NCBI GenBank assembly: GCA_964016885.1
Contig: OZ024742.1
Coordinates: 326,678,001-326,742,000, forward strand
DNA length: 64,000 nucleotides
From: Eledone cirrhosa
Taxonomy: Eukaryota
Direction of reading: 5' to 3'
A program made the translations under genes and the position numbers. The notes beneath the pieces are model-generated. The model was not told where the DNA came from, ran no database searches, and saw only the letters and a program-made list of their open reading frames with translations. This document shows, one piece after another, positions 727-64,000 of this stretch; the first letter of the stretch is position 1; every line of letters begins with the position of its first letter.

Positions 727-982
<256 letters not shown>

Positions 983-3572: not shown

Positions 3573-4059
3573 ATACATACATACATACATACATACATAC
3601 ATACATACATACATACATACATACATACATACATACATACATAGTTTCTGTAGAAAGTAGTGTAATAGTTAGGTAAAACAATCAAATTCAACTTACTTAT
3701 TATGTATTTATCTTCTCTGGGGTATGCGACTCAATCTTTTATCATTTCGAGGACTAGAATCAAGTGTTTCTCTCTCTTTTTTGGTCTATGGAAGAAATCT
3801 GCCGAATCCGACCTGGAGAAGAGTGGGCTCTGTCAGGTTTTAAACGTTCATGACATGCTATGTTTTGGGATGGTGCCCCAACGGCCTCACCATGAGTTAA
3901 GGGTCTTTTACTCTACTTTCTTATATCTATACTGTATTTGGCGAGAGAGGAGTTATTATTTTTTTTAAGAATAATATAGTCAAAATTGTTAGTTATGGTA
4001 GTACAAAATATATTGTATACTGAACATAGGCTTGGTTCGGTTGTGAAGTTCGCTTCATA

Positions 4060-4260
4060 ATAATTGTTTCTACTTTTTAGCACAAAGCCAGCAAATAACA
4101 CAGTGTATTACTGGTACTTTATTTTATCGACCCCGTAAGGATGAAAGGCAAAGTTAACCTCGGCGGGATTTGAACTCAGATTAGAAAGGGCCGTAACTCT
4201 ATGCTGCAAAGCATGGCTTTCGACCCTCTACCGATACTACCAATCCACTGCCCTTCGCTT
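4060..4260 (-). mobile_element. SINE family A
   Basis: Near-complete match to 11588-11790 on the opposite strand. Confidence 0.85.
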
Positions 4261-8097: not shown

Positions 8098-9593
8098 GTA
8101 TGGAAGGTTCTCCAGAAACTTGGTTGCCCTGATAAGTTCCTTGCTTTAGTTAGGTCTTTCCAGGACGACATGAAGGCTTGGGTTAATGTCGGAGGTAACA
8201 TGTCGGAGCCTATCTCAGTAAAAAATGGAATGAAACAGGGGGATATTCCAGCACCGACCCTGTTTGCCATATACTTTGCAATGGTTTTCTATATTGCATT
8301 CAGGAATTGCTAGCATGGTGTTTACATCCGATATCGAACCTCAGGCAGCATATTTAACATCAGGCGCTTTGCTGCAAAAGCAAAAGTATTTGCATCAATC
8401 ATAAGAGATCTCTTGTATGCAGATGATTGCGATCTTGTAGAGAGTGATATGCACCACATTTTGAATGCATTTTCGGATACTTGCACTGCCCTAGGATTGA
8501 CTGTCGGTCTCAAGAAAACTGTCGCCATGTATCAACCTGCCTCTGGTAAGCAGTACAGTGAACCAAATATCTATGTGTATAGTAAACGACTTGGAGTGGT
8601 TGATCAGTTTGTCTACCTGGGAAGCACTGCCAATCGATACAGCAACCTTGATAATGTAATCCCACTCAGGATTAGGAAAGCAAGTGATGCTTTCGGAAAG
8701 CTAGAAAGGCGACTCTGGGGTCGGCGAGACATATGCAAGAAGACAAAGGTAAAGGTGTACAAGGCATGTGTGCTCTCTTCTCTTCTTTATGCATGCGAGA
8801 CCTGGGTCACATATCGACACCACCTTAAGAAATTGGAGCGTTTCCATCAGATGTGTCTCAGACGGATCCATGGCGTTCACTGGAGGGACCACATCAGTGA
8901 TGTCGAGATTTTGGAAAGCTCTCTGTGTGACAGTATAGAAGCTCTTGTGCTTAAGCAACGACTCCGTTGGAGTGGTCACCTTGCCAGGATGAAGGATTCT
9001 AGAATACTAAAACAACTCTTTTATGGAGAGTTAGTTAAAGGAAAACGACCTCCACATAAACCAAAAAAGAGGTATAAGGATTCCTTGAAAGCCTCTTTGA
9101 AAGACGCTAACATCTCTGCTGATACATGGGAAATGTTGCTGTTACTCGTAATAAATGGAGAAAGACTGTATATGAGGAGAAAGTTGCCTTTGAGGCATCT
9201 CGAATCGAATACGAGAAAGTAAAGCGGGATGTGAGGAAGGGCATTGCTGTTGCACTTCCAGACGGCGAGGGTCCTCCTATGGTGCTGACATGCAGCGTCT
9301 GTGCGAGAATCTGCCTAAGCAAAGCTGGACTCGAAAGTCATCTTCGCAGTCATAAAGTGAGACCAGTGGTTGACTACCAGGCTGCTGTTGGAGATGCTAC
9401 TCATCATGCTTGCCAAACATGTGGTAGAGAATGTAAATCAGCAGGAGGGCTCAAGCGTCATGCAAAAGTACACGAACTCCAACCACAGCCGACTGTTCCC
9501 AGTGAATGTTTTGGTTGCCAACTCTGTGCAAAACATTTTAGATCATTGGCTGGGCTAAAAAGCCAAATTCGATCGCAGCGCTGTTAATTGCTA

Positions 9594-11810: not shown

Positions 11811-14800
11811 ATGGCCGCACATGTGTGAAGACAGTACAAATCTGCGGGGGAAAAGGTTCGTAACTTTATGCTGTTTTAAAGTGTAATTTTTTGTATTTTC
11901 TTGTCGTTAACGAAACTTAAGGTACACATCTTGATTTAAAGAGAGGGATACCTCTCAATATTCGGGCTTTAAGCCCGAATATTGAGATTTATTTTTAAAA
12001 ACTTCGAAAAAAATCACTTCCCCACCAAAAGAAAATTATGGAAATTTTCGACCTTGAAACGGTAAACAACGTTCAGGTCAAAAGTTTAAAGGCAGCCACT
12101 GTAGATTTCACCACGACTACGACGGCTACAGTCATGCCTGTCATCCACTCTACTGAATGTGAAGGCAAAACTCAAAAGCTACCATCACAACCTTCTGCGA
12201 TAGCAGCAATATCATCTGAAAACAACATCACCACCACCGCCACCACCACCACAACAACAACAACAACTCAGAGCAATAACGACAATAACACCGACAGCTT
12301 CAATGTAAACACGGATGGCGGTGGCAACACCAATAACAACAGCAAGAATGACAACACCAACAATAAGAGCATCAGAAACACCACATTTGCTGCAGCAGCA
12401 GTAAAAACAAAGCGCTTATTGAATATTGATATTGATATTAGCGATAAAGACGAACAGTTGGCCAAAGCGTGGAGGCTAATTAAACGGGAGAAGTCCTGGG
12501 CAAACCTGACCATCCCGGACGAGGCAATAGCGGCCATGCAAAGGAGGACGGTGTTCTTTCGATGTATTTCGGTGCAGACACGAAAAGTGGAACTTGCGAG
12601 CCAAGCAGAAGTAGAGGCTGCTTTGGAGTACATCGGAAGTAACATAGAGTACAAAGCAAGAGGCAAACAGTTCGGTACCATCTCGGTACTGTTCAAAACC
12701 GAGGCCCTCGCTATTAAGCACTCGGTGACCCCCTGCAGAACGGAACGCATTATCATGCATCCGTCCTATATGGGTAAAAGGACAGTGAAGGTACGCATTC
12801 CCAGCATCCCACCAGGAATGAACATATGGTGGCTGCTGTGATGCGTAATCGAGGAGGGGACAGACACTACCTTCCTGGACATCAAAAGGACAGAGAAAGA
12901 GGACTGGTCCGGAATGGATTTGGAGATTCTTCTCCAAATGAAACCGGAGGATATGAATAACATCCCGGATTTTGCCCGCCTGCAGGACGGGACAACAATC
13001 CAACTAATGATTGACGGAAGAAGGCCACGCTGCTTTGTCTGCGGGGAAGCAACGCATCTTCAAGCCTTCTGCCCTCAGCGCAAAAATGCAGGGGGTCGCA
13101 AACCTCCTTTGTTGCCAACGCTCGCCAGTGTCAGCACGGAAAGTTGCACCACCACCACCACCACCAAAAACAACATCAACAAAAACACGGACACCAACAT
13201 CAAAAGCAGCCGGATCACCACCAACACCAAAACCAATCCAAGGAGAAAACGAGGAAAGCTCTTCCACTCCCCTCCCCCCAATTATACACATAGACAAAAC
13301 AATAAACGCACACACAGACACAGAGACACTCACAGACATAGACCCTTTGTCTTCCAGCAGCGAAAATGAAGGAAAACCCAAAAATGCAAAAAAAAACAGA
13401 AAACTCACAAAAAATAAGTCCCAACAAAACACAAAAACACACACAACAAAAAATACAGACACCACAAACGCAAACACTTCCCCAATAACATCATCACCAA
13501 CAGCAACATCGACACCACCTCCACAATCCCCGAAACGCAAACAACCTAAACAAACACAAGTACAAATAAACACACAAATACCTGAAATTGCAGACACCAC
13601 ACCTACAACAAACATAGACATACCTGAAACAACACTACCAAAACCATCGCCACCACCTTCACCAAAACGAAAACAAATAAAACCAACAAAATGTTAAAAA
13701 CTTCGTGCTTGTCAGAAGGGCCAACGATAAACTGATGGCCCTCTTAGCGCGAAGCGAGGACATTCAAACAGAGGGGGAGATTTTTGAAATGAGCACATTT
13801 TGCGTGCCAGAAGATTTGCTTCTGGTCCGAATGTCACTCAATTCCTTCAAAGAAATTCGAGAGAGCTTTCCTCAAGACGTGGGAACCCCGAATGTGAAAC
13901 CCACATCAAGACTTTTAAAGAGGTTCCCAAAAGAAACCCCACCAACCATGGAGGTCAAACCACCCGACCTTCACAAGACCCGGGAGGTAAGTAAACCTTC
14001 CCTCTCTCTCTCTTAGCTTACCAATATGGCCATATTAAGAGTAGGAAGTTTAAATGTTCGCGGCCTGGGGTCACCCTGGAAGCAGGGTCGCCTGCTCAAC
14101 GACCTCCGGTCGCTGGAAATGGATGTGATTGCCGTAAGCGAGACCAGAATTTCCGACACGCGCGCACTAGACCCCATTTTCGACGACTATCAGATCTTCG
14201 CATCTGTTAGCAGGCCGGGAATGGGGGTGGAGTGGCAGTGCTGTTTAGGAAAGGACTGGATCTCGAGGTAAGGTCGATCTTCCGGGATCCGGACGGTAAG
14301 TTGGTGGTCTTGGATGTGAGCAGTAGCGAAGGTGGTGCCTTTAGACTGCTGGCCGTCTACGCCCCTACAGGGGCCGGACGACCTGACTTCTTTAGGCGCC
14401 TGGAGACCTTTCTGGGTACGTCTCGCCCTTTACTGTTAGCGGGGGACTGGAATGGCATCTTAGACGCACGCTAGGATTGTGTGGGAGTAGCCGATAGGAG
14501 CGGGGGGTGCAAAAGCCTCAAGCACTACTCAGCCAGTTCCAACTGTCTGACAGGTATCGACTAGATTTCCCCAATGTGCCAGTATGGACATGGACCAACC
14601 GAATGGGTCATCTAGATCGTATATAGACAGGATCTTCATTAGGAAAATAGATAGAAATAGTGTGGGCTGTCCACTTTTTAAAACGGTCGCCTATTCAGAT
14701 CACAAATTTGTAATCTGTACGGTCGACCTAAATAAAACGCGTAGGTTAGACCGGGTTACTGGAAGCTGAACATGTCATTTTCGGCACGTAAGGCTTACAG

Positions 14801-17670
14801 GGACCGAGTCAACAATTTAGTTAAGCAAAAGTTGACAGAGGGGATCATCAACAACAGATGGTGGGTGGCTCTCCAAAGAGAGATTAGAGTAACTTCGATA
14901 GAGTTCAGCAAAGAACTAGCGTTAGAGAAAAATAGAAAGGAGAGGGAGCTGGTAGATAAGTTAGACGAGGCTATTTGTAGTGGCATCGCAACTGACGTGC
15001 TAGCGGCGAGAATGGCATTAGACCATTTCTTCAATGCCAAACACGAAGGTTGCATTGTCAGAGCTAAGGCGCGTGCGCTGAGAAACGAGGGAACTAAAGC
15101 TGTTCGATGGGCCCGCGTGGCGGAGGCGCAGCGTGGTAATAAAACCACAATTCGGTCTTTGGCGGACCGAGACGGACACGAGATAAGCGATTCCAAGCGG
15201 ATGTGTGAGGCCTTTCGCCAACACTTTGCTCGGTTGTTCAGAGAGAGTGGCGAGTCAGAGAGAGTAGCGGATTTCAGTCCCTACCTTGACGGCTTGCCGC
15301 GCATCTCGACGGTCGACGCTGAGCGCTGCGAAAGGCCGATTACTTCAGCCGAAATTCAGGACGCCCTTGTCGGCTGCATGAAGCGCAAGTCACCCGGTTT
15401 GGATGGCGTGCTCTACGAGCTTTACGTAAATATGCCAGACTTGTTCTCCGACTGCAACTGGCAGTAGAATAGGAGTATTCCCAGTTCTGTGAGCAGGGGA
15501 GTGGTGACGCTGATAAGGAAAGACGAGAACAAGAGGGATACATTAGACAACTTCAGGCCCATAACTCTGCTCAACACAGAGTTTAAGATTTTGGCCAAGG
15601 TGTTAGCAAAGATATTGGTGCTTGTCGTCGAGGATTTGTTTGGGGAGGCGCAAACTTGCGCAATCCCAGCCAGGTCCATACACGACAATCTCCGCCTCAT
15701 GCGATACATCATAGAGAGGCTAGGGTGTAAACCTGGCTTCGGTGGGGCACTGATCAATTTAGATCAATCGAAAGCATTCGATAGGGTCGACCATCGGTAT
15801 CTGGAGTTTGTCCTCAAAGCAGCTGGCTTCGGCCCCGTCTTTAGAAGCTGGATCGTTGCAATGCACAGCGACACATGCTCGGTGGTCAAGGTTAATGGCC
15901 ACCTCTCGGAACCATTTCGGCTCTCCCTATCGGTCCGTCAAGGGTGCCCTCTCTCTTCCCTTCTGTACGTATTGACTCTCGAGCCTTTACTGCGGAAGCT
16001 GGAGCTGTTGCAGGGCATCCCGCTCGAACCGGGACGTGGAAAGGCGGTGTCGGCTTATGCGGACGACATCACCGTGATGGTGTCGAACACCTCAGAAATC
16101 GAGGTGGTCAGCACCTTATTGAAGGAATATGAAAGGTTGACAGGAGCCAAACTTAACCCGGAAAAGTCGGTGGGCTTGCAGCTCGGAACCTGGAGAGGCA
16201 AGCCCATGCCATCCAACAGCGTCGTGGGGCGCTGGACGGACGGACCAGTAAAGTTGCTCGGGGTTTGGTTCGGACCAGACCTCCAGGTGGAAAAGAATTG
16301 GGACGAGGTAACGAGCAGAGTAGCCAGTCTCACCCAAAAATGGGCTGGGAGGAAGCTATCACTGAAAGGTCGCGCGAAGTGGCGAATGCGTATATCGCGT
16401 CCGTCATCTACTACCGCCTGACCGTCGTGCCTTGCCCCTGTCCGTGCCTCGTCAAGCTGGAACGGCTCCTCTTCAAATTCTTGTGGAGAGGACAAGTTCC
16501 GTTGGTGAGGCGGTCCATCTGCTGCCAGCACCCTCTACGCGGAGGGCTGGGCATGCCGTGGATAATGATGCGCAAACATGCGTTGAGGCTGCGACATCTC
16601 CAGATATTCTGCCTTAACGGTGAACAGGTGTGGTCGCCGTTTATCAGACGGGCCTTTCCGCAGCTCATTTCTTTGACTGAGCTGCAGTCCTGGGTCAAGA
16701 AGAGACCGAGACTGGGTGACTGGCACCTGGAATGTTGCCAGGCACTCACTGCCCTCTACCAAGCGGGCAATGCGATCAGTGGAACTTCCACTCTCGAGTT
16801 CTATAGAGGATTAGTGGTGGGCAAGTGCGATGACGCACTCGGAGAAGCTTTGGGCCTCGACGAAGTCGAACTGACCAGTCTGTACCGGAGGACTTTTGAG
16901 CCGGGGACGATGGACAATTTCCAGAAATCCTTCGCTTGGCAGTGCTACCGGGGGGCACTGCCGGTTCGGGATAAACTCTACAGGCACGGAAGTGCCGTCA
17001 GACGGACCTGCACGCACTTGTCCAATGTCCGTGCATTACTGACTTGTGGAGTTATGTCGAACAGCTACTGTCGCGTGTGGAACGAATCCGGCTATCGGCC
17101 GAGTCCATAGTGAAGATCGAGCCGCCACCTTCCTTAGGTCAGGAAGAGCAGGACATTTTCCTCTGTCTGGTGGCAGTTGCGAAAGAGATGATATGGTGGA
17201 CCAGGTTGAAAGGACTAAAGACAGACACTTTTCTCTTCGGCCAATCCCTCATCAACTTCTTCAAGTTTCACCTGGAAAGGAGGGTGAGGGTGGAGAGAGA
17301 AGTGCTGCCCCCCAGTACATTTGCTAAAAGGTGGGTGAATGTGGCGAGAATGGCTCGTGTGAATGGGCCTACTCTGACCAAGCGCCTATAGGCTAGCTAA
17401 CTTGAGGAGAGGGGTGCTCTCCCTGGGTGCCCTAAAAGCGCAGGGTGGTTCAGGATTGGTGGGATACCTGAATCACCCCAGGGTCGTCCACCCCCTATAG
17501 GGGAATTTATTTTGTTATATTTATGCATAGTTTATTTTATATTTTTATATCTTCATTGTTAAATTAGTCTTGCCATTGTGCACTTTTACTCGACCTTATT
17601 GTAAACCCCCACTGTCCCTGTCTTTGTATTGTCCCCTACATGTCGGCCCTGGTGGCTAATAAATGAAATC
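11811..17670 (+). mobile_element. Near full-length L1/Tx1-type non-LTR retrotransposon, frameshifted
   Basis: ORF1 remnants 12038-14016 with CCHC knuckle CFVCGEATHLQAFC. ORF2 remnants 14026-17391 with APE endonuclease (SLNVRGL, VSET, AVYAP, GDWN, SDH) and RT (FRPITLLN, DQSKAFD, VRQGCPLS, AYADD). AATAAA at 17658. Confidence 0.93.
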
Positions 17671-26250: not shown

Positions 26251-27119
26251 TTGGTACGGTATGAAGTCAACTGAAACCATTCCAGTATACTTCTGGTTCT
26301 TAAATTATCGATACCGGATATATAGTGGATAAAATAAATAAATCAATGTAAAAACAAATTTGAGGTGATGGTGGGTAGACGGACCGATAATACAGATCCC
26401 GGTGGGATTTGAAGTATGGAATGTAGATAGACGAGAGACAAGCAACTGATAAAGACGATCAGTCCAATGCAATACCATCAATGGTAGACACTGATAATAC
26501 GCAGCTGTAGTTTTCGATTGACATTTGAAGTAGTAGTTAACTCCCTTGATAATAATATCGTAGCATAGATTGTGGGGAAACATGGCAAAATCAATTATCT
26601 ACATATCAATTAGCCGACATACCGTCCACAAAACTATTAGCAAAAAAAAAAGGAAATCAAAATAGGTTCACAACTACAGAAATGACATGATAGACAAAAT
26701 GGAGGTTCTCAACCTATTTATCAATCAAAATCTCTTGAGTGTTTTACACCAATGAGAGGTACAAATTACATATATGATGGTAGTGATGAATTTAGTCATT
26801 TCATTATATACTATAAGATTAACACAAACTAAAATAACTCGCAGAGGCACGAACACTTTTATACTTACGCAAATATTACACGATTTACGAAACAAAACCC
26901 TCTTCAAAAATAACGTATTCATAAACGTTTGCTAATGACTAAAAGTAGCATACAGATGTAGCATATATACTACAATAGCTTCACTTCCATCAATTCAATC
27001 ATACACAAATATACACACATACGCACATATATATACGCACACAAATGCACACATACACGCTATTGAGTTCTCTGGTGCGTTATGGTCCACCTGGTATCTT
27101 ACAACACTCTTTTTGTTTG

Positions 27120-27164
<45 letters not shown>

Positions 27165-27287: not shown

Positions 27288-27466
27288 ATGGGTGGTGAGC
27301 CCCAGGTTCAATCGTAGGTGACCACAGTAAATAAGGTACTCGATACATTAATGGACTGTATACAACAAATTAAAGATAGAAATGGCTTCTAGAAGACTAG
27401 AACTGTTTCATTCGAAAGAAATCATCAGGATGAAACAGTTCTAGTCCTGTAGAAGTCATTTCTATA
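27285..27466 (-). mobile_element. Hammerhead-bearing element, family P2 (minus copy with short inversion)
   Basis: Reverse strand reads CTGATGA tttctttcgaat GAAACagttctagtc, followed by a tail gtatcgagtaccttatttactgtggtca homologous to 52820-52860. Confidence 0.65.
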
Positions 27467-29923: not shown

Positions 29924-32900
29924 TAAGGCGGGTAAAATTCCCGAGATCCATGGACGAGTTCTCTCCAGCGGTCTCTGTCCCTCATTATCGCATCTCCAAC
30001 AGACCAGTGTCTGTCCTTAGGGCATCAACATATGTTAACCTTGGTCTTCCTCTTCTAGTGTGTCCATGTAGGGGATCCCAAAGGAGCACTGAGTGCAATG
30101 TCAACTCTGGATGTCGGTGAGCATGTCCAGCCAACCTCAGTCTTCTCTGTGTCACTTTTGAGCTGACTTTTGGGATGCTCCCATACAGCTCTGAGTTTTT
30201 CATCCTCAGTGTATACTGATTAATGTTCAGAGCCATCCTCAGCATTCTCGTGTAGCACCCATCCACCATCTGAGTGAGTCTCTTGGTCAGTGTCCAAGTC
30301 TCAGACCCATACAGCAGCACAGACTCCACTACAGCAATGAAGAGGCGGATTTTCAGGTCTCTACGAAGGTCTGACTTCCACACCGATCTCAAGCTGTGAC
30401 ACGCCGCCCAGGCCTTGCTCTTCCTCTCAACCACATCATCTTCCGTATTCCCAATCTTTGCTCCCAAATACAGGAAGTCCTCAACCAATTCCAGCGGCTT
30501 CCCGCCTACATTAGTGATCCCCTCTGGCTTCTCAACATTCTCTACCAGATATTTTGTTTTAGTCTCATTCATTCTCAGCCCCACACTCATCGACACAGTC
30601 TCAACCTCCCGCATCAAATCCCCTGCCTCCTTCACTGTATTTGTCACCAAAACTATGTCGTCGGCAAACTCAGCATCCGATACCTTTTTCGCCCCAACTC
30701 TCCTGCTCTGAGCCGGTGCCACAGTAAAGCCAGAGTCCTGGTGTTTCTCCAGTGCAAGGCGCATACAATAGTCCACTACGATGATAAAAAGGTAGGGAGC
30801 CAATGTATCTCCCTGGAGCACTCCAGCCAGTATCTCAAAGAACTCTGTCATCCCATCAGGTGTAATGACTTGGGCTTTGGTGTTGGTGTAGAGCAGTGAT
30901 ATCAGGTCCACTATCCTCTTGGGGATTCCATAAGCCTGTAAGATCTTCATCAGGCAGTAACGGTCCACAGAATCAAAGGCCTTCCTAAAGTCAATGAAAA
31001 CCATGACCGCAGGAAGGCACTTTGCTCTAGCTCCCTCTAATATCCTCCTCAGCATCAGGATGTGACTGGTGGTTGATCTACCCTCTCTGAAGCCGTTCTG
31101 GTTGTCCCTGAGCTTCTTCTCCATCTCAGGCTGGATCCTGTTAAGAATCATCCTGTTGAGGGTCTTTGCCACAAGTGACGTCAGTGAGATCTCCCTTCTT
31201 TGGCACTGGGACGATGTTACTGATCCTCCACTGATTCGGGGCAACTCCTTTCTCCAGTGGCCCGTTACAGAACCCCAGGATGATATCATCAAAATCACAC
31301 CTCTTCATCACCTCTGATGCCACTCCATCCTCTCCATGAGCCTTGCCCTCCTTGATCTTCTTCTTGGCTCTCTGAATCTCCTCTCTGGTGAAGGGCTCTG
31401 TCTCAACATCCAGTTCCTCAAACAGCCGCCTGATCTCCCCAGTGCTCTGGGCTGTGGAGGGTGGCTCTCCTAGTAGGGTCCTAAAATGGTCTAGCCATTT
31501 CCTCTTCCTATCCTCGGGCCCCGTTCCCTGGATCTGACTCGAACACCTTTTCTTCCTCCCTGTGATCTCGTTGATGATCATCCAGCTCTCCTTACATCCA
31601 GATCTGTCAACCGCTCTCTCCACACTTCTGATCTTCTCTATCAGTGCCTCCTCTCTGACCTCAGTGTAAGCGGTACAGAGCTCTTCCCTCATCACCTCCA
31701 CAGTCTCCATCCTCTCCTCCGTAGGATCAGCATAGAATTGGTCCCTGGCAGCTTTCAGGTGTTCTCTGGCTGCACACACTTTTGGGTTTGCAGAGCTGAC
31801 GTGCTTCCCTTTGTTCTTTTTCCTCGGCACCAGGGTTTCACTTGCTTTCGCCACTGCATTGGTGAAGTGCCCGTACCTCCTCGTCACACTCTCCTCACTC
31901 CATCCAATCTCTCTCTCCTCTGACTCTCCACACAGAGCACTAAACCTGTTTCTCACTTCCACTGTGAACCTCTCCTGTAGCTTATCATCTTCCCTGAAAG
32001 CTCCCCAGTCATAGATTGTTCTCTGGGGCTGAGCCTTGCTCTTTCTTAAGCTCACGCGGACCTCACTCATAACAAGCCGGTGGTCACTACCCAGTGTACT
32101 GAAATAGCTGTATGGTTCCGTGTTCAGAACACTATTCCGCCACTTTTTCCTCACCAGAATGAAATCAATCTGGGACTTGGACAGGTGCATATCTGAGATG
32201 TAGGTCCACATCTTCCCCAGATTCTTCCTAAACCTTAGGTTGGTCGCCATCAAGTTCGCCTCCAGCAGGGTGTCTCTCAGTAGTCTTCCATTTCGGTTGG
32301 TGTTGTTATGGAAGTACCAGCAAGGATCTTCACTGCCCTCCTTACTCAGATGTGCATTGAAGTCCCCCAAAACAAGCAGGATATTGTGTGCCTGAGTGGT
32401 GTTGACAGCTCTACACACCTCCTCATGGAACTCCTCGGCATTCACATCACTGTCCCCCTCGGTTGGACTATAGGCTGAGATGACTGTCAGTCTTGGGTTT
32501 CCATTGAAGGTCACCCTCAACACTCGCGGGGAGATAGGCATTATTTCCCTCACCAACAGATTGGTTTTTGCACTGAACACAAAACCCACTCCTCCTACTG
32601 CAGCGTTTGTTGTGTTCTTCACTGCCGATGTAGTGATGAGCTGGCTCTTCCTCTCGATCATCACACTCCTCACGGGCTCATCGTGTAGAATCCTGTGTTC
32701 TTGGACCGCAAGTATCTGTATACCACTCTCCTCGAACAGATGTCCCAACTCCTCTCTCTTCTCCAGCGTTCGAATAGTCCTCACATTCAAAGTGCCCATT
32801 TTGATGGCTCTTCTGCAGGAAAAAACTGCATTCTTTATATTTGTCTCAGAGACAGCTGATCCATCATCCACTGGCCCTCTCTGTGGCTCTAAGCCAGCAG

Positions 32901-33075
32901 AGTCATAACGACCAGGCTGATCCTTGACAGTGTAATTAGGGGCTCTAACCCTAGTGCTGTTAGATCGACTCTCCATATTTCTTTTCAATGGCTGACAATA
33001 CCATACCGGCGCCACTCGAGTAAGGTAGTTATTTAACCCATAACTGGAGCCCTAACAAGTACTACCACCCCGTAT
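29924..33075 (-). mobile_element. Near full-length RTE-like LINE (APE + RT) inserted in (TA)n
   Basis: ORF 33015-31141 (GTLNVRT, AVQEHR, SAYSPT, GDFNAH, SDH) continues after a frameshift as ORF 31298-29985 (QNGFR, FIDFRKAFD, GVLQGDTLAP, EFADD, LLYGSETW). Confidence 0.93.
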
Positions 33076-33090
33076 ACTGTATATATATAT

Positions 33091-33282
33091 ATAGGAACAA
33101 GTATGACCCCGACGGCAGAGCTCAAGCTGTTTCGACGGCTAATTCAGTCCAGAATTAGCCGTCGAAACGGCTTGAGCTCTGCCGTCGGGGTCATACTTGT
33201 TCCTATTACCCACTCTACTACACTAAGCATTGAGTACTTTGGTGCGTTATGGTCCATCTGGTTCCTTACCACATTTCCTTCG

Positions 33283-33283
<1 letters not shown>
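33091..33283 (+). mobile_element. Family P1 half-hammerhead palindrome element
   Basis: ~54 bp arms around cagtcca; right arm reads ccgtc GAAAC GGC-ttgagctct-GCC GTC ggggtc. Flanked by (TA)n. Confidence 0.85.
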
Positions 33284-33368
<85 letters not shown>

Positions 33369-34700: not shown

Positions 34701-34775
34701 ATACATATATATATAACCAAGAAACAGACAGAATGACGAAATGAAAATAAAAATATATTATCAAATAACCATTAT

Positions 34776-34857
34776 ATCTCTCGGACAGATTATCCCTAAT
34801 CTGTTTCGCCCTGAGTGTGTTTGTAACAGATAATCCTGGGCTTCATCAGCGAGAGAT
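34776..34857 (-). ncRNA. Type I hammerhead ribozyme (inverted copy)
   Basis: Reverse complement of 35551-35632. Confidence 0.88.
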
Positions 34858-35550
34858 TGCGATTAAATGCCACAAACACTATATGCCAACGTTCACACAG
34901 AAAGATGAATTCATCACCTCGTGCTTCGCCAGCCAAACGTGGTAAGCGCGTGTTGAACAGAAATAACAGTCAAACACGCACAACTTAATAGCTCATCCCG
35001 TAAGAGAGCCGAAATATATATATATGAATTAGAACCCTGTAACCATTAAGCTCTAAGTATAAAGTACAAATAAATACTGAGCCGATTAACAATATATAGT
35101 AAGAAACACAGTAAACCGTGTGTCCAAAATTACAAGGGTTGAAAAACCACATATGCTTGAAATATTTAACCAAGAAACAGACAGAATGACGAAATGAAAA
35201 TAAAAATATATTATTTCGTCATTCTGTCTGTTTCTTGGTTAAATATTTCAAGCATATGTGGTTTTTCAACCCTTGTAATTTTGGACACACGGTTTACTGT
35301 GTTTCTTACTATATATTGTTAATCAGCTCAGTATTTATTTGTACTTTATACTTAGAGCTTAATGGTTACAGGGTTCTAATTCATATATATATATTTCGGC
35401 TCTCTTACGGGATGAGCTATTAAGTTGTGCGTGTTTGACTGTTATTTCTGTTCAACACGCGCTTACCACGTTTGGCTGGCGAAGCACGAGGTGATGAATT
35501 CATCTTTCTGTGTGAACGTTGGCATATAGTGTTTGTGGCATTTAATCGCA

Positions 35551-35632
35551 ATCTCTCGCTGATGAAGCCCAGGATTATCTGTTACAAACACACTCAGGGC
35601 GAAACAGATTAGGGATAATCTGTCCGAGAGAT
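35551..35632 (+). ncRNA. Type I hammerhead ribozyme
   Basis: atctctcg CTGATGA a GCCC..GGGC GAA ACAGATTA-ggga-TAATCTGT C cgagagat. 8 bp stem I, 4 bp stem II, 8 bp stem III with GNRA loop; predicted cleavage after GUC 35624. Confidence 0.9.
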
Positions 35633-35853
35633 ATAATGGTTATTGAGGCGGTTTGTATTATTTGATAATATATTTTTATTTTCATTTCGTCATTCTGTCT
35701 GTTTCTTGGTTAAATATTTCAAGCATATGTGGTTTTTCAACCCTTGTAATTTTGGACACACGGTTTACTGTGTTTCTTACTATATATTGTTAATCGGCTC
35801 AGTATTTATTTGTACTTTATACTTAGAGCTTAATGGTTACAGGGTTCTAATTC

Positions 35854-36044: not shown

Positions 36045-36232
36045 AAACAAGTATGACCACGACGGCAGAGCTCAAGCCGTTTCGACGGCTAATTCAGTCC
36101 AGAATTAGCCGTCGAAACGGCTTGAGCTCTGCCGTCGGGGTCATACTTGTTCCTATTACCCACTCTACTACACTAAGTATTGAGTACTTTGGTGCGTTAC
36201 GGTCCATCTGGTTCCTTACCACATTTCCTTCG

Positions 36233-36234
<2 letters not shown>
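36045..36234 (+). mobile_element. Family P1 half-hammerhead palindrome element
   Basis: Near-identical to 33091-33283. Confidence 0.85.
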
Positions 36235-36319
<85 letters not shown>

Positions 36320-36397
36320 TATACTGTATATATATATATATATGATTTCTAAAGAATGAAACAGTTCTAGTCCTGTAGAATATCATCTATATTAAAA

Positions 36398-36462
<65 letters not shown>

Positions 36463-37080: not shown

Positions 37081-37128
<48 letters not shown>

Positions 37129-37132
<4 letters not shown>

Positions 37133-37920
37133 ATTATGAAGAGAGAAGAAACAATTAGATATAATTAGTAATAAGATGTATCATACCTAAACTGCTTCTA
37201 AATTCCTCGACTACGTAGTTTCGTGGCATAATCAAAAACAATACATCACAGAGATATAGAGTTTTTGTGAGGTCTGCCGACTTATCAAGAGGATACCTCA
37301 TTAAGGGTTTCAAAAAACGTCTGTAAGATGCGATATAGAATCCCGAAAGGCGGAGGGGGAGTCAATCACGTGATACAGCGGTCAAGAAACAGAGCTAAGC
37401 CTCTTATAACCCTGAAAAAAATACCACGGAGGCGGAGGGGATATTTATATCGAGGCCGTAGAAGAGATGGTTAAGGAGGCCTCGATATAAATACCCCCTC
37501 CGCCTCCGTGGTATTTTTGTCAGGGTTATAAGAGGCTTAGCTCTGTTTCTTGACCGCTGTATCACGTGATTGACTCCCCCTCCGCCTTTCGGGATTCTAT
37601 ATCGCATCTTACAGACGTGTTTTGAAACCCTTAATGAGGTATCCTCTCGATAAGTCGGCAGACCTCACAAAAACTCTATATCTCTGTGATGTATTGTTTT
37701 TGATTATGCCACGAAACTACGTAGTCGAGGAATTTAGAAGCAGTTTAGGTATGATACAACTTATTACTAATTATATCTAATTGTTTCTTCTCTCTTCATA
37801 ATGTACTTTATAGCTCTGATACTGGTTCAGTCTAATCCATTCGGATTGGTTTGTCCCAGTTTTTCATAGAGCAACATCGGTTAAGGTTGGCACCATTAAC
37901 TCAAGGATAGATGTGGATAT
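37129..37920. mobile_element. ~330 bp-arm inverted repeat element with a hammerhead in each arm, plus tail
   Basis: Arms 37129-37457 and 37478-37806. Minus 37204-37293 reads tcctc TTGATAA GTcGGCA...TGCCAC GAAAC-tacgta-GTC gagga; the plus copy 37642-37731 has TCGATAA. Confidence 0.8.
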
Positions 37921-38112
37921 ATTCATGTATATGTATGTGTCCGCATGTATCTGTGTGTTTCTCTATATATTGTGTATATATATATATACAAAGACATTCG
38001 GAGGCACCCCATTCCGGTTTTTACTTTTATTTTTCTCATGACAGACTGAATGAATCGGGACCCAGAGCCCAATGAAACTTGAGTACCTGTTTATGTCACT
38101 GTTGTAATCATT

Positions 38113-38609: not shown

Positions 38610-42010
<3,401 letters not shown>

Positions 42011-42135
42011 AAAGTAGCTTATATAATTATATATGTGTGTGTATGTCAACATGAATGGACCTATTATTTTTATCTAAAGACATTTTTCCAATGCCATCCC
42101 GCCCGTCCCCTTAATCTATTTTATTTCTCATTTTT

Positions 42136-42171
42136 TCTTCAGATGAAGGACTAGCGTCCGAAACGTTAAGA
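42136..42171 (+). ncRNA. Minimal hammerhead-like motif (U4A variant), family shared with 55182
   Basis: tctt CAGATGA a GGAC-tagc-GTCC GAAACGTT aaga, with downstream tatcaagcgttaa.ctaatatat shared with 55243. Confidence 0.6.
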
Positions 42172-42255
42172 CCCTCTTCCTTCTATATCAAGCGTTAACC
42201 TAATATATACCTTCCATATACTGTACCGATTGTGTTGTTATTTCTGTTTACCTTT

Positions 42256-43566: not shown

Positions 43567-43571
<5 letters not shown>

Positions 43572-43774
43572 AACGAGTAGGACCCCGACGGCTGAGCTCA
43601 AGCCGTTTCGACGGCTAATTCTGGACGGTTAATTCAGTCCAGAATTAGCCGTCGAAACGGCTTGAGCTCAGCCATCGGGGTCCTACTCGTTCCTATTACC
43701 CACTCTACTACGCTAAGTATTGAGTACTTTGGTGCGTTATGGTCCACCTGGTTCCTTACCACATTTCCTCCGTT
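43567..43774 (+). mobile_element. Family P1 half-hammerhead palindrome element (longer central stem)
   Basis: Centre gacggctaattctggac-ggttaattca-gtccagaattagccgtc, with the same tail as the other P1 copies. Confidence 0.85.
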
Positions 43775-52637: not shown

Positions 52638-52685
<48 letters not shown>

Positions 52686-52692
<7 letters not shown>

Positions 52693-52875
52693 GAGCTTCT
52701 ACAGGACTAGAACTGTTTCATTCGTGAAAAATCATCAGGGCTCCCTGATGATTTCTCACGAATGAAACAGTTCTAGTCCTGTAGAAGCTCTTCTATATTA
52801 AAACTTTTATACTCTGCTATGTATTGAGTACCTTACTTACTGTGGTTATCTCCGATTCAACCCGGAATAACTTAT
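52686..52875 (+). mobile_element. Family P2 palindromic hammerhead-like element in (TA)n
   Basis: ~55 bp arms. Right arm reads gggctcc CTGATGA t TTC-tcac-GAA t GAA ACAG-ttctagtc-CTGT A gaagctc, then the tail. Fragments at 27385-27466 and 36350-36400. Confidence 0.75.
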
Positions 52876-54845: not shown

Positions 54846-55181
54846 CTCTAGACAGGTTTGTCCTGTTGCTCACCAGTACCAGTAATCTCATTAAGCCACA
54901 CACACATATACACCAACTCTATAACATTGTACTGGATATCCATCACCAGAAATGATGGATATTCACTCCTACCACGTCGGTTTCAATGATAACGAATCCG
55001 TTGTTCGAATGCCTATTCGTTAACTGAAAGTATAAGTGCCTGAGTATTCCTGATATAGCTGTATCTTTAACGTGATCCTCTAGCTGACTAGATACACACA
55101 AGCTTTTTCTAAAAAAAAAAATGTTTCCCGTTTCTTCCTCTTCTCACTTTCTATTTGTCTATTACATCTTTGACTTCTCAT

Positions 55182-55223
55182 TCTATCTTCTGATGAAGGA
55201 CGAGTGTCCGAAACGAAAATAGA
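55182..55223 (+). ncRNA. Minimal hammerhead motif, cleavage triplet apparently deleted
   Basis: tctatctt CTGATGA a GGAC-gagt-GTCC GAAACG aaaataga. Confidence 0.6.
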
Positions 55224-55340
55224 CATTTCCTACTATATCAAAATATCAAGCGTTAAACTAATATATTTCTTCATTTTACTGTGTTGTTTACTTTGTTGTT
55301 TCCGTTTATTATTTTACACACACACACACACACACACAAA

Positions 55341-55588: not shown

Positions 55589-55940
55589 ATCAATGATATT
55601 AATAAATGGAATCTATATTTATAAAATCATATTTTTTCTATTATATATATTTCAAGGGTACCAAATCTTTGGTACGCTCTCATCAGATAAAATACAAAGT
55701 TTGTTTTATAAATATTGACATATCCAGGAATGAGACCTTAACGGTTCAAGGTCTCATTCCTGGATATTTATAAAACAAACTTTGTATTTTATCTGATGAG
55801 AGCGTACCAAAGATTTGGTATCCTTGAAATATATATAATAGAATAAATATGACTTTATAAATATAGATTCCATTTATTAATATCATTGATTTTATACTCT
55901 CAGAAAACTTGTTGAGTGCTTCGAATCTGTTATAAATATA
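55589..55940. mobile_element. ~140 bp-arm inverted repeat element with a minimal hammerhead in each arm, plus tail
   Basis: Arms 55589-55739 and 55748-55890. Plus 55785-55845 reads tattttat CTGATGA GAG-(gtaccaaa/tttggtat hairpin)-CTT GAAAT-atat-ATA atagaata. Confidence 0.78.
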
Positions 55941-61789: not shown

Positions 61790-61961
61790 TATCAAAATAA
61801 AGATCCGAAGACATGGTATAAATTTCCAATCATTTTAATCACTTGATGAGATCAGTGATAATCGATCATGACCACACGATCGATCTATTTCTTATTGAAA
61901 CATGTGCCGTGATTAAAATGATTGGAAATGTATATCATGCCTTCGGATCTTTATTTTGATA
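61790..61961. repeat. 53 bp-arm inverted repeat enclosing a degenerate hammerhead-like core
   Basis: Arms 61790-61842 and 61909-61961, enclosing TTGATGA...GAAAC-atgt-GCC. Confidence 0.6.
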
Positions 61962-62309: not shown

Positions 62310-64000
62310 TTCGTTTCTGAATTTGTTTAGCAAGATTCTTTATCTGAAATCGTGTGTTGAAACCGATATTGTTATACTTTGGGAGGGTCATGTTGCCAAT
62401 AAGAAACACACGCACCAGTTGCTTTCACTTCAATTTATTATAATAAATTTATAATAAATTTATAAATTTCTGGTTGGTTGGTTGGTTCCACAACCAGATA
62501 GTTGTTTATATATTGTCATAGTTCTTTCGTCACACTCTGTTACCTCTTCAGTGACTGGGGATTCCTTTCTTTGTTTTTGTGCCTCTCCTTTGTTCTGTCC
62601 TACGCCATTTTGTTTCTGTGTGTGTGTTGTATGCTCAGTCTGCACATGCGCCACATCCAGGTGTCTGTGTGTGTTTATGTTCATTTATTTATTTGTTTAT
62701 TTACATGTTACTGGTTGGTTGTTTGTTCTATGTGTGTGTGTGTATTCATTTTGTCCTTAATTGTAAGTTGTGATGTTGCTGTTCCACTCATATTTTCTAT
62801 TTAATTTTGGTTGTCATTCTTTTATGTTTATTGCCTCTGTGATTTGTCTAAACATTGCGTCTTTTCTGTGTGTAGATTCTATTTTTATTTCTATGTTCTC
62901 TAATTTACCCTTGTGTTCTATTTTAGCATGTTGGTAGAGTACAGATGATTCTTTACTATCTTGAAGGTCTCGCCAGTGTTCATTTATCCGTTCCCCTACA
63001 CTACGAGCTGTCTCACCTATGTACATTATATTTTTGTCTCTACATTGTCCTTCAGTACATCTTATGCTATACACTACATTTCTAGTTTTACAGTTAATAT
63101 GGGGGCTTATTTTACAGGTTATACATTTCTTATCTATACATGAGGGTCTTTGAAAAGGGTATGTCTCGCTAATAAGTGTTTTTACGGAGGTACCTGGTCT
63201 TTCTACTATCTTAATATTGAGTTTATGTTTATCTAGGGCCCTTCTAAATTTGTAAGCTAATTCACCTCAAGGGGTTGTATCGATGAACATTACACTCTGG
63301 TATTTATTGCTATCATACCATGAGTTTATTCTATTAGCCTTGTTCCTAGTTCTTTCTATTCTATTCCAAAATGTGCTCCTATACAAGGGGCAGGTCCCAT
63401 TTATGTCATTATTTACCATTTTTCCCCATTTGGTTCTGGCTCCTCTATACACTCTGATTTTATCTCTCTGATTGTAGCCAGAGAACTGCATACGGTGGAT
63501 GAAGTGTTGTATGTGTCTCTCTACTAGTTCTTCGGGGTTGCACATGCGGGACACGTTTCTCATCACCCGTACCAAATCCGCAATCAGTATGTTGATTTTG
63601 GTATGGTCCGAAACGGCCGAGTTTCGGTGGATCAGATGTTTGGAAGTCATGGGTTTGGCATAATGGGAATAGAGGATTTGTTTTTTGTTATTAATGGTAT
63701 CTAACCAGAGCTCTGTGTCTAGTACAGGTAATCGATGGTTGGGGTGTTTACTTGGGTAGTCTATAGTAACTCTAATGCTCTGGTGGATGGAGTTAGCTAT
63801 TTGCTGGATGCTTTCCATTGTGTTTTTCTCTAGTTCCTGACTGTTTTCTAGTGGGGGTGACTTAACTACGATGTTTATATCATCAACGTAGCGGGAGTAC
63901 ATTATCAGGGTTAAGGGGTCTTCTAATTGTTCTTTAAGTTTAAGTTTAAGTCTACTGTCCCACCATACCATGAATAAGTTAGCTATGTCGCCTGCAATGC
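62310..64000 (-). mobile_element. Penelope-like element 3' half (RT, Cys linker, GIY-YIG, 3' UTR), runs off the window
   Basis: YSRYVDD, LPVLD, HYAKP; linker CIDKKCITC; YSIRC..C..MYIGETARSVGERINEH..RQITEAINI. Ends in (TA)n. Confidence 0.9.
62515..62555 (-). ncRNA. Minimal hammerhead in the PLE 3' UTR, same strand as the ORF
   Basis: gtca CTGAAGA g GTaACA-gag-TGTgAC GAAAG-aa-CTA tgac. Confidence 0.7.

Follow-up and report, generated by a model that had tools for sequence, protein, structure and literature searches.

What kind of insertion is a palindrome of roughly 190 bases whose arms carry the 3′ half of a hammerhead ribozyme, and what has become of the other half? The question is posed by family P1, copies of which lie in the window, the whole stretch of 64,000 nucleotides of Eledone cirrhosa DNA that was analyzed. 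The window is microsatellite-rich eukaryotic DNA with LINE and Penelope-like element (PLE) fragments. LINE-type frames with reverse transcriptase and endonuclease stand at 29985-33051 (-), 11999-17391 (+) and 8314-9587 (+), two of the three matching RVT_1 at E 5e-30 and 7e-29, and the first begins 40 nt away from the focal P1 copy; a SINE-like dispersed repeat of about 190 nt occupies 4058-4254 and about ten further sites. A BLAST search of 33091-33290 against the window, together with alignment, confirms as real the four palindromes and the tail-only piece reported in a preliminary description, with E-values from 1e-102 to 2e-10 for the P1 pieces (Table 1).

Each palindrome presents the same order of mirrored arm, center, forward arm and tail, so that a head-to-head, inverted and 5′-truncated layout is present in all four copies. 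The arms measure 55-56 nt, as they do in a neighboring family at 52685, and the tail stands on one end only, its 3′ end being identical in the four palindromic copies. A fixed arm length for such palindromes was considered and rejected, other palindromes of the window having arms of 36, 335 and 432 nt. All five pieces are flanked by (TA)n or (TA)n/(GA)n tracts, microsatellites that would mask any target-site duplication, and the copies contain neither a coding part nor a reading frame. Each of the three full copies folds as a whole into one hairpin of 55-60 bp (-107 to -135 kcal/mol), while the right arm with its tail folds no better than shuffled sequences (z 0.87). The one-sided tail, the inverted 5′ copy and the (TA)n target bear out the earlier reading of these palindromes as footprints of Penelope-like 5′ inversion, and the copies are very probably PLE stumps.

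Table 1. Positions in the window of family P1, its parts in the focal copy, and the related 52685 family
Feature	Position	Strand	Evidence and remarks
P1, focal copy	33091-33283		BLAST, alignment
Inverted (mirrored) arm, focal copy	33091..33145	-	55 bp, 1 mismatch against right arm
Outer end of mirrored arm, focal copy			inner terminus CCTAT, joined to (TA)n
Unpaired center AGTCCA, head-to-head junction	33146..33151	+	alignment; uninverted relatives differ upstream
Candidate 3′ strand of native stem II outer helix	33152..33163	+	pairs by eye with CGGCTATTT; last letter is the C before GAAA (putative C11.1)
3′ half of type I hammerhead	33164..33186	+	GAAA, 5-bp stem III, GUC
Putative stem I 3′ strand GGGGTC	33187..33192	+	assigned by position; partner strand not seen
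Tail	33207..33283	+	one side only, 77 nt, runs into (TA)n
Small tail hairpin	33212..33235	+	ACTC-stem-TT bulge-GAGT; motif scan; also in 52685 family
P1, second copy	36045..36234	+	same center as focal copy; left flank turned into (GA)n
P1, third copy	43567..43773	+	other subfamily alleles in both arms; 14-nt center duplication
P1, fourth copy	828..981	+	third allele set; mirrored arm outreaches tailed arm; arms meet through 6 shared letters, 864-869
P1, tail-only piece, older	27062-27121	+	starts near TATTGAG; BLAST match over 27062-27106; alignment
52685 family copy	52685-52871		full core in both arms, center 5′ of core
52685 family copy	27302-27465	-	full core in tailed arm, 3′ half only in mirrored arm
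52685 family copy	36344-36399		starts inside CTGATGA; no tail

A half-hammerhead had been described in each arm. A pattern scan recovers it in five of the eight P1 arms, where GAAA, a 5-bp stem III around the palindromic loop GAGCTC, and GUC are all intact, and fails to recover it in the rest. The left arm of the focal copy carries C>T at 33128 within the motif, 43567 has lost GUC from its right arm through a G>A change, and GAAAC is absent from the right arm of 828, as first reported. GAAA with at least five Watson-Crick pairs and UH appeared in 15 of 20,000 dinucleotide shuffles of 33146-33283. The core positions 33164-33167 lie outside the best 40 of 189 variable sites, and the common allele 33180 T>A adds one stem III pair, so that stem III reaches 6 bp in 43567. 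The word GCCGTCG occurs twice (33157-33172, 33180-33187), and ACGGC can pair either upstream, in a hairpin around CGAA, or downstream, in stem III; possibly, a long stem II in the uninverted RNA would free stem III and act as a folding switch. The missing CUGANGA strand was also correctly noted: CTGANGA is absent on either strand from all five P1 pieces of the window. Rfam gives no match at the gathering score, and its 117 matches below threshold in 26000-64000 include no hammerhead; sub-threshold miRNA matches fall on all three full P1 copies. The P1 copies themselves are not ribozymes. They would appear to be inert, any transcript being expected to fold into a long double-stranded hairpin, and truncation is the most likely source of the half-hammerhead itself, which has little importance.

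Genome-wide evidence was taken from reads and contigs placed on 33070-33290: raw RAD reads of organism A (run X8; 22,081 of 12,467,656 placed), contigs of organism A that may represent the window's own sample (X1; 20,555 of 16,285,364), and the 49 and five placed sequences of organisms B (X5) and D (X7). The X8 and X1 placements make P1 a very abundant family. The variants shared by both arms of 43567, held to be private to that copy in the preliminary description, proved to be common alleles instead: among minus-direction X8 reads, 33180 T>A is carried by 4346 of 7462, 33193 A>C by 2790 of 7574 and 33198 T>C by 2647 of 7575. These arm-shared variants, and three of those of 828, are common in X8 and are therefore subfamily markers. 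Both arms carry the same allele set in all four copies, with three sets overall, and arm-to-arm differences within a copy are single changes. The proposal that the two arms of one palindrome come from one template type is upheld by this sharing of subfamily alleles.

What the template looked like upstream of the palindrome center can be seen in uninverted relatives, which exist as loose ends in three organisms (among the best 20 of 465 loose ends, with 30 letters for each): at 33139 (43 contigs) and 33142 (29 contigs) in X1, at 33139 and 33145 (one contig each) in X5, where the records carry 86 and 141 loose letters, and at 33139 (one contig) in X7. Their upstream stretch bears directly on the central GACGG...CCGTC hairpin, earlier taken for native stem II. 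The 5′ strand of that hairpin, GACGGCTAATTC, is mirrored arm; the uninverted upstream does not read GACGGCTAATTC, and the proposed stem II is therefore a product of the inversion. By eye, the uninverted loose ends contain the 9-mer CGGCTATTT, which is exactly complementary to the letters preceding TCGAAAC when 33155 T>A, a common allele, is present; they also contain GGCTAAA, able to pair with TTTAGTC beside the center. These pairings suggest a native stem II domain of about 55 nt with a 9-bp outer and a 7-bp inner helix. CUGANGA is absent from the roughly 60 nt of visible uninverted upstream, a view that ends about where the core is expected. Neither a partner strand for stem I nor a reverse transcriptase or GIY-YIG frame linked to P1 shows in the 30 loose letters. 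The X1 upstream consensus (agreement 0.62, apparently two mixed registers) opens with TG, letters that would match the additional nucleotide and the G10.1 found after CUGANGA in PLE hammerheads (PMC4209133), and the CUGANGA core of the P1 parent is expected just beyond the visible letters. A motif built from the uninverted upstream has one two-mismatch match in the window, at chance level (mean 0.44), and the search for the parent's upstream by way of predicted proteins gave no candidate and none at E<=1; two predicted-protein matches were rejected as unrelated repeats by inspection. Pattern scans for P1 returned no loci in metagenome, viral and prokaryote genome contigs, and the PLE-like frames of the window have no sequence in common with P1.

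The palindromes have two fixed outer ends, at 33206 and about 33283. CCTAT, 20 nt beyond GUC, is the one site at which the mirrored arm ends; this is seen directly in 33091 and 43567, and would hold for 36045 and 828 as well if the flank GG or GGAAA was remodeled into (GA)n. An earlier ATA at 33193 is unused as a stop in all four window copies. From the inner end, 3689 X8 reads and 145 X1 contigs run into (TA)n, and the X8 reads among them may come either from mirrored arms or from solo copies that lack the tail; along the mirrored arm, plus-direction depth in X8 is flat (3828-3818 over 33094-33109). X5 has a piece (loose end at 33229) that starts much like the tail-only piece at 27062. Pile-ups of X8 molecule ends at 33141, 33144 and 33153 coincide with two AATT sites; we take them for restriction cuts made in the RAD library and not for breakpoints, and X8 is accordingly biased at the palindrome center.

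The centers are less uniform than the ends. Spacer length was described as differing in each copy, and this is true of 828 and 43567 but not of 33091 and 36045, which share the 6-nt center AGTCCA. The center of 43567 is AGTCCA plus the 14-nt duplication, and 828 alone differs, its arms meeting through the shared letters at 864-869; the corresponding joint, 33134>33167 with six shared letters, also occurs in X1 and may be copy 828 itself. A center common to three copies of two subfamilies, with no shared letters seen with the upstream stretch, needs either a short-loop template or an inherited junction. In the contigs, ten of the best 15 of 51 joints are skip joints, in which the tailed arm resumes at points spread over 33157 to 33205, and the center of the 52685 family lies 5′ of an intact core, which contradicts the earlier view that inversion is confined to stem II. 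Five of these ten joints leave letters in the mirrored arm only and five in the forward arm only; of the latter, one proves symmetric about GAGCTC if its six shared letters are included. Seven further joints come from the best 12 of 61 joint inserts: three are left-longer, three right-longer and one equal, the other five rows having been left out as duplicates of listed joints (two) or as running backwards (three). A spacer-less palindrome centered on AAATTT is found in one contig each of X5 and X7, where all depth at 33145 is T (195/195 and 23.8/23.8), i.e. not the AGTCCA type of center. One X1 contig (record 2) is nine letters longer than the reference across the center, and three of the eight X1 pieces listed span it without gaps. 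The joints derive from contigs placed at 85% likeness, with sides of 21-29 letters, and such joints are often repeat-derived; skip joints, moreover, can show only junctions shorter than the reference. Because of these short sides, because of the restriction to shorter junctions, and because later deletions give the same shapes, the joint geometry is suggestive and does not amount to a histogram.

We consider it on balance probable that P1 copies are 5′-truncated PLE 3′ ends formed from two short cDNAs joined head to head. On this proposal, which draws on the both-strand extension and the paired start sites bounding the tail that were seen with purified PLE protein (PMC11167929), the element's endonuclease would nick a (TA)n tract on both strands, one of which would prime at the outer start, where the tail ends, while the second would prime at CCTAT, the inner start immediately 5′ of the tail hairpin. 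Each cDNA would stop after about 10-60 nt of shared region, often inside the stem II domain, and pairing of the two 3′ ends through short words that are shared or self-complementary (ACGGCT, GAGCTC, AAATTT, AATTC) would precede fill-in. With such head-to-head joining the likely ribozyme would lose its front half: CUGANGA would be missing from the copies because it would lie some 55 nt upstream of the point that most cDNAs reach, and its absence would not be due to any use of the half-ribozyme by P1. A more specific reading is that P1 preserves an in vivo record of PLE twin priming, with two fixed starts around a tail hairpin conserved across PLE families, a stall in a long stem II and head-to-head annealing; this we put forward tentatively, as a possibility that falls short of being probable. 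Two points tell against the two-cDNA route: it would entail one start site per strand, whereas the start sites showed no strand difference in vitro (PMC11167929), and the center common to three copies would call for a short-loop template, which was not directly seen.

Fold-back of a single cDNA is the main rival. A cDNA primed at the tail would turn in stem II, copy itself as far as the inner site, and be cut or joined there. Allele sharing between the arms would be automatic under such a course, the 6-nt loop of the three full window copies suits a hairpin, and the nine additional letters of X1 record 2 are the length that a turn at the imperfect uninverted hairpin would be expected to give; a related self-priming has also been proposed in print for Adineta Penelopes (PMC3846280). 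A simple fold-back at stem II in all copies, as the preliminary description envisaged, nevertheless conflicts with 828 and with five of the ten listed joints, where the mirrored arm exceeds the tailed arm. These junctions, like the loop-less centers GAGCTC and AAATTT, need a later deletion, and the fixed inner end requires a rule of its own. Later deletions in palindromes could indeed mimic left-longer junctions. The fixed inner end together with the left-longer and loop-less junctions favors two separately primed cDNAs over fold-back, which we regard as rather unlikely.

It is less likely still, and improbable in our estimation, that palindromic masters are transcribed and mobilized whole by the PLE enzyme, the varied centers being later deletions of an unstable palindrome. 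Masters of this kind would explain the single center of 33091, 36045 and 43567 and the three of eight listed X1 pieces that cross the center gap-free, but the arms change together across three allele sets, which demands separate masters or constant conversion. Uninverted forms are also abundant, the uniform T at 33145 in X5 and X7 implies another center there, and a 55-bp RNA hairpin is a poor template.

Other palindromes of the window show how half-cores come about. The 52685 family has the same layout as P1, with three copies, three truncation points and a Hydra-style core (CTGATGA T...T GAAAC); its full, half and truncated cores indicate that half-cores arise by truncation. Complete type I hammerheads are found in each arm of the palindrome 34764-35644 (35559 +, 34849 -), the 432-nt arms of which differ by one mismatch; stem I and stem III have 8 bp, the stem II domain has 35 nt, and the copy at 35559 folds as a hammerhead (z -2.71). 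This palindrome is followed by a partial copy to 35853, and half-like GAAAC...GTC motifs are present at 35103, 35305 and 35776. The AT-rich palindromic insertion 55590-55935 has complete cores in both arms, with a stem II domain of 26 nt at 55793. Long stem II domains are thus real in this genome (35559 and 55793). The palindrome 37123-37990 has 335-nt arms, a one-sided tail, GAAAC-TACGTA-GTC with a palindromic stem III, and a degenerate 5′ core. At 61790-61961, an imperfect palindrome with a 66-nt center holds TTGATGA and GAAAC about 50 nt apart and is possibly a decayed hammerhead with a long stem II. A broken PLE-like reverse transcriptase frame at 40437-41774 (-) has no Pfam match; upstream of it, in the opposite orientation, a hammerhead-like repeat at 42119-42250 (+) ends in (TA)n, and a relative of this repeat with intact CTGATGA lies at 55169-55308. 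At 62814-64000 (-), a GIY-YIG fragment (PF01541, E 1.8e-4, narrowly missing the cut-off) that has a Cys-rich motif upstream is likely another PLE remnant.

The tail hairpin recurs as well. The pattern RCTC-stem-2 nt bulge-GAGY is found immediately 3′ of the inner end in three of the four P1 tails and in the 52811 tail of the 52685 family. A scan of the window gives 12 matches against a shuffled mean of 2.2 and maximum of 6 (50 block shuffles), a count that repeats inflate. RNAalifold on six window tails returns no consensus pairs for the hairpin, and its single folds are not significant alone (z -1.15 in the focal copy, where T>C at 33228 weakens it). The tail of 55590-55935 contains the motif ACTC...TTGAGT.

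These observations leave little room for a natural half-hammerhead, the 3′ half being a substrate cleaved in trans by an RNA that supplies CUGANGA, which the preliminary description offered as its alternative and which we judge very unlikely. CTGANGA is lacking from the five P1 pieces and from the visible uninverted upstream, and 33164-33167 are not among the best 40 of 189 variable sites, as such a substrate would have it; but the half is locked in the 55-60 bp hairpin into which the copy folds, the uninverted form has its own stem II partner in cis, half-cores arise by truncation alone in the 52685 family, and the two of 32 window CTGANGA sites that could pair five to six letters with GGGGTC both belong to complete hammerheads elsewhere. 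Equally hard to credit is the reading of P1 as no retroelement at all but a DNA element of MITE-like or fold-back type whose hammerhead-like motif is due to chance. Such an element would suit the short, palindromic, high-copy form, the lack of a reading frame and the lack of an Rfam match, but in it the inverted repeat should frame the element, whereas the right end of P1 is a single-copy tail, uninverted and tail-only forms are present, the motif is matched in 15 of 20,000 shuffles, and the tail hairpin is common to hammerhead-bearing families.

If twin priming is the true course, it would join an in vitro result, two strands with two starts, to a genomic structure, and would displace antisense self-priming as its explanation. 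With thousands of short insertions, two fixed ends and free centers, P1 offers a large natural test set for the inversion mechanism and a count that separates twin priming from fold-back. P1-like copies also risk being mis-annotated as MITEs or microRNA hairpins.

In L1 twin priming, the two target strands prime two cDNAs that are joined by microhomology, producing a 5′ inversion. The two L1 pieces come from different parts of the RNA, whereas the P1 pieces overlap, which yields a palindrome, and the second start of P1 is a fixed site. We found no paper on the P1 family or on twin priming in PLEs in a literature that lay mostly outside subscription journals and Repbase. Purified PLE protein cleaves and extends both target strands, the tail being the stretch between the two start sites, with no difference in start sites between strands in vitro (Frangieh et al. 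2024, PMC11167929). The Poseidon element of Anolis used in that study belongs to another clade and host than P1; both take uncleaved RNA as template, P1 copies running across the GUC site, and head-to-head joining of two products is not described in the sections considered.

Minimal hammerheads of PLEs and non-LTR retrozymes (Cervera and De la Pena 2014, PMC4209133; Li et al. 2026, 10.64898/2026.07.22.740005) share with P1 the type I order and the palindromic loop III. PLE hammerheads are mostly single or form opposite-strand pairs 100-700 bp apart, which have been read as truncated PLEs (PMC4209133). Unlike retrozymes, P1 copies have no 5′ core and no tandem monomers and are dispersed palindromes; tandem monomers with a complete hammerhead each, which define a non-LTR retrozyme, are not found for P1 within the window. 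The HHR_half_core of PMC8557442 denotes, in Naiads, a first half whose second half lies at a distance, an arrangement other than that of P1. Closer likeness is seen with the Hydra-clade PLEs in the supplement of PMC8557442, which share the (TA)n preference and carry a hammerhead no more than about 200 nt from the 3′ end. They have a short stem II, compared with a probable stem II domain of about 55 nt and a stem III of 5-6 bp in P1. The RCTC-stem-2 nt bulge-GAGY hairpin can be discerned by eye in the tails of Hydra-2_Amil and Hydra-2_Ajap, with G-C for A-T, i.e. in two of six novel Hydra-clade consensi; it is partly present in two more, and two end too early. The P1 sequence itself was not found in the part of that supplement that was searched, where line breaks limit the search, or in the supplement of PMC13282606, which includes no repeat library.

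Insertions of EN+ PLEs consist of an inverted 5′-truncated copy with a tail on one end and a preference for (TA)n (PMC8557442; PMC3846280), and the origin of the tandem and inverted structures of PLEs has been stated to be undefined (PMC8557442). P1 resembles them in its head-to-head inversion with a junction palindrome, its one-end tail, its (TA)n target and its hammerhead motif near the 3′ end, and differs in having no reading frame, an insertion of only about 190 bp, only the 3′ half of the hammerhead, and a tail of 77 nt as against 30-40 bp in published EN+ PLEs (PMC8557442). To judge by its layout, from which its class is read, P1 would behave like a PLE end, and the insertion is of a known kind, the inverted 5′ copy of a PLE.
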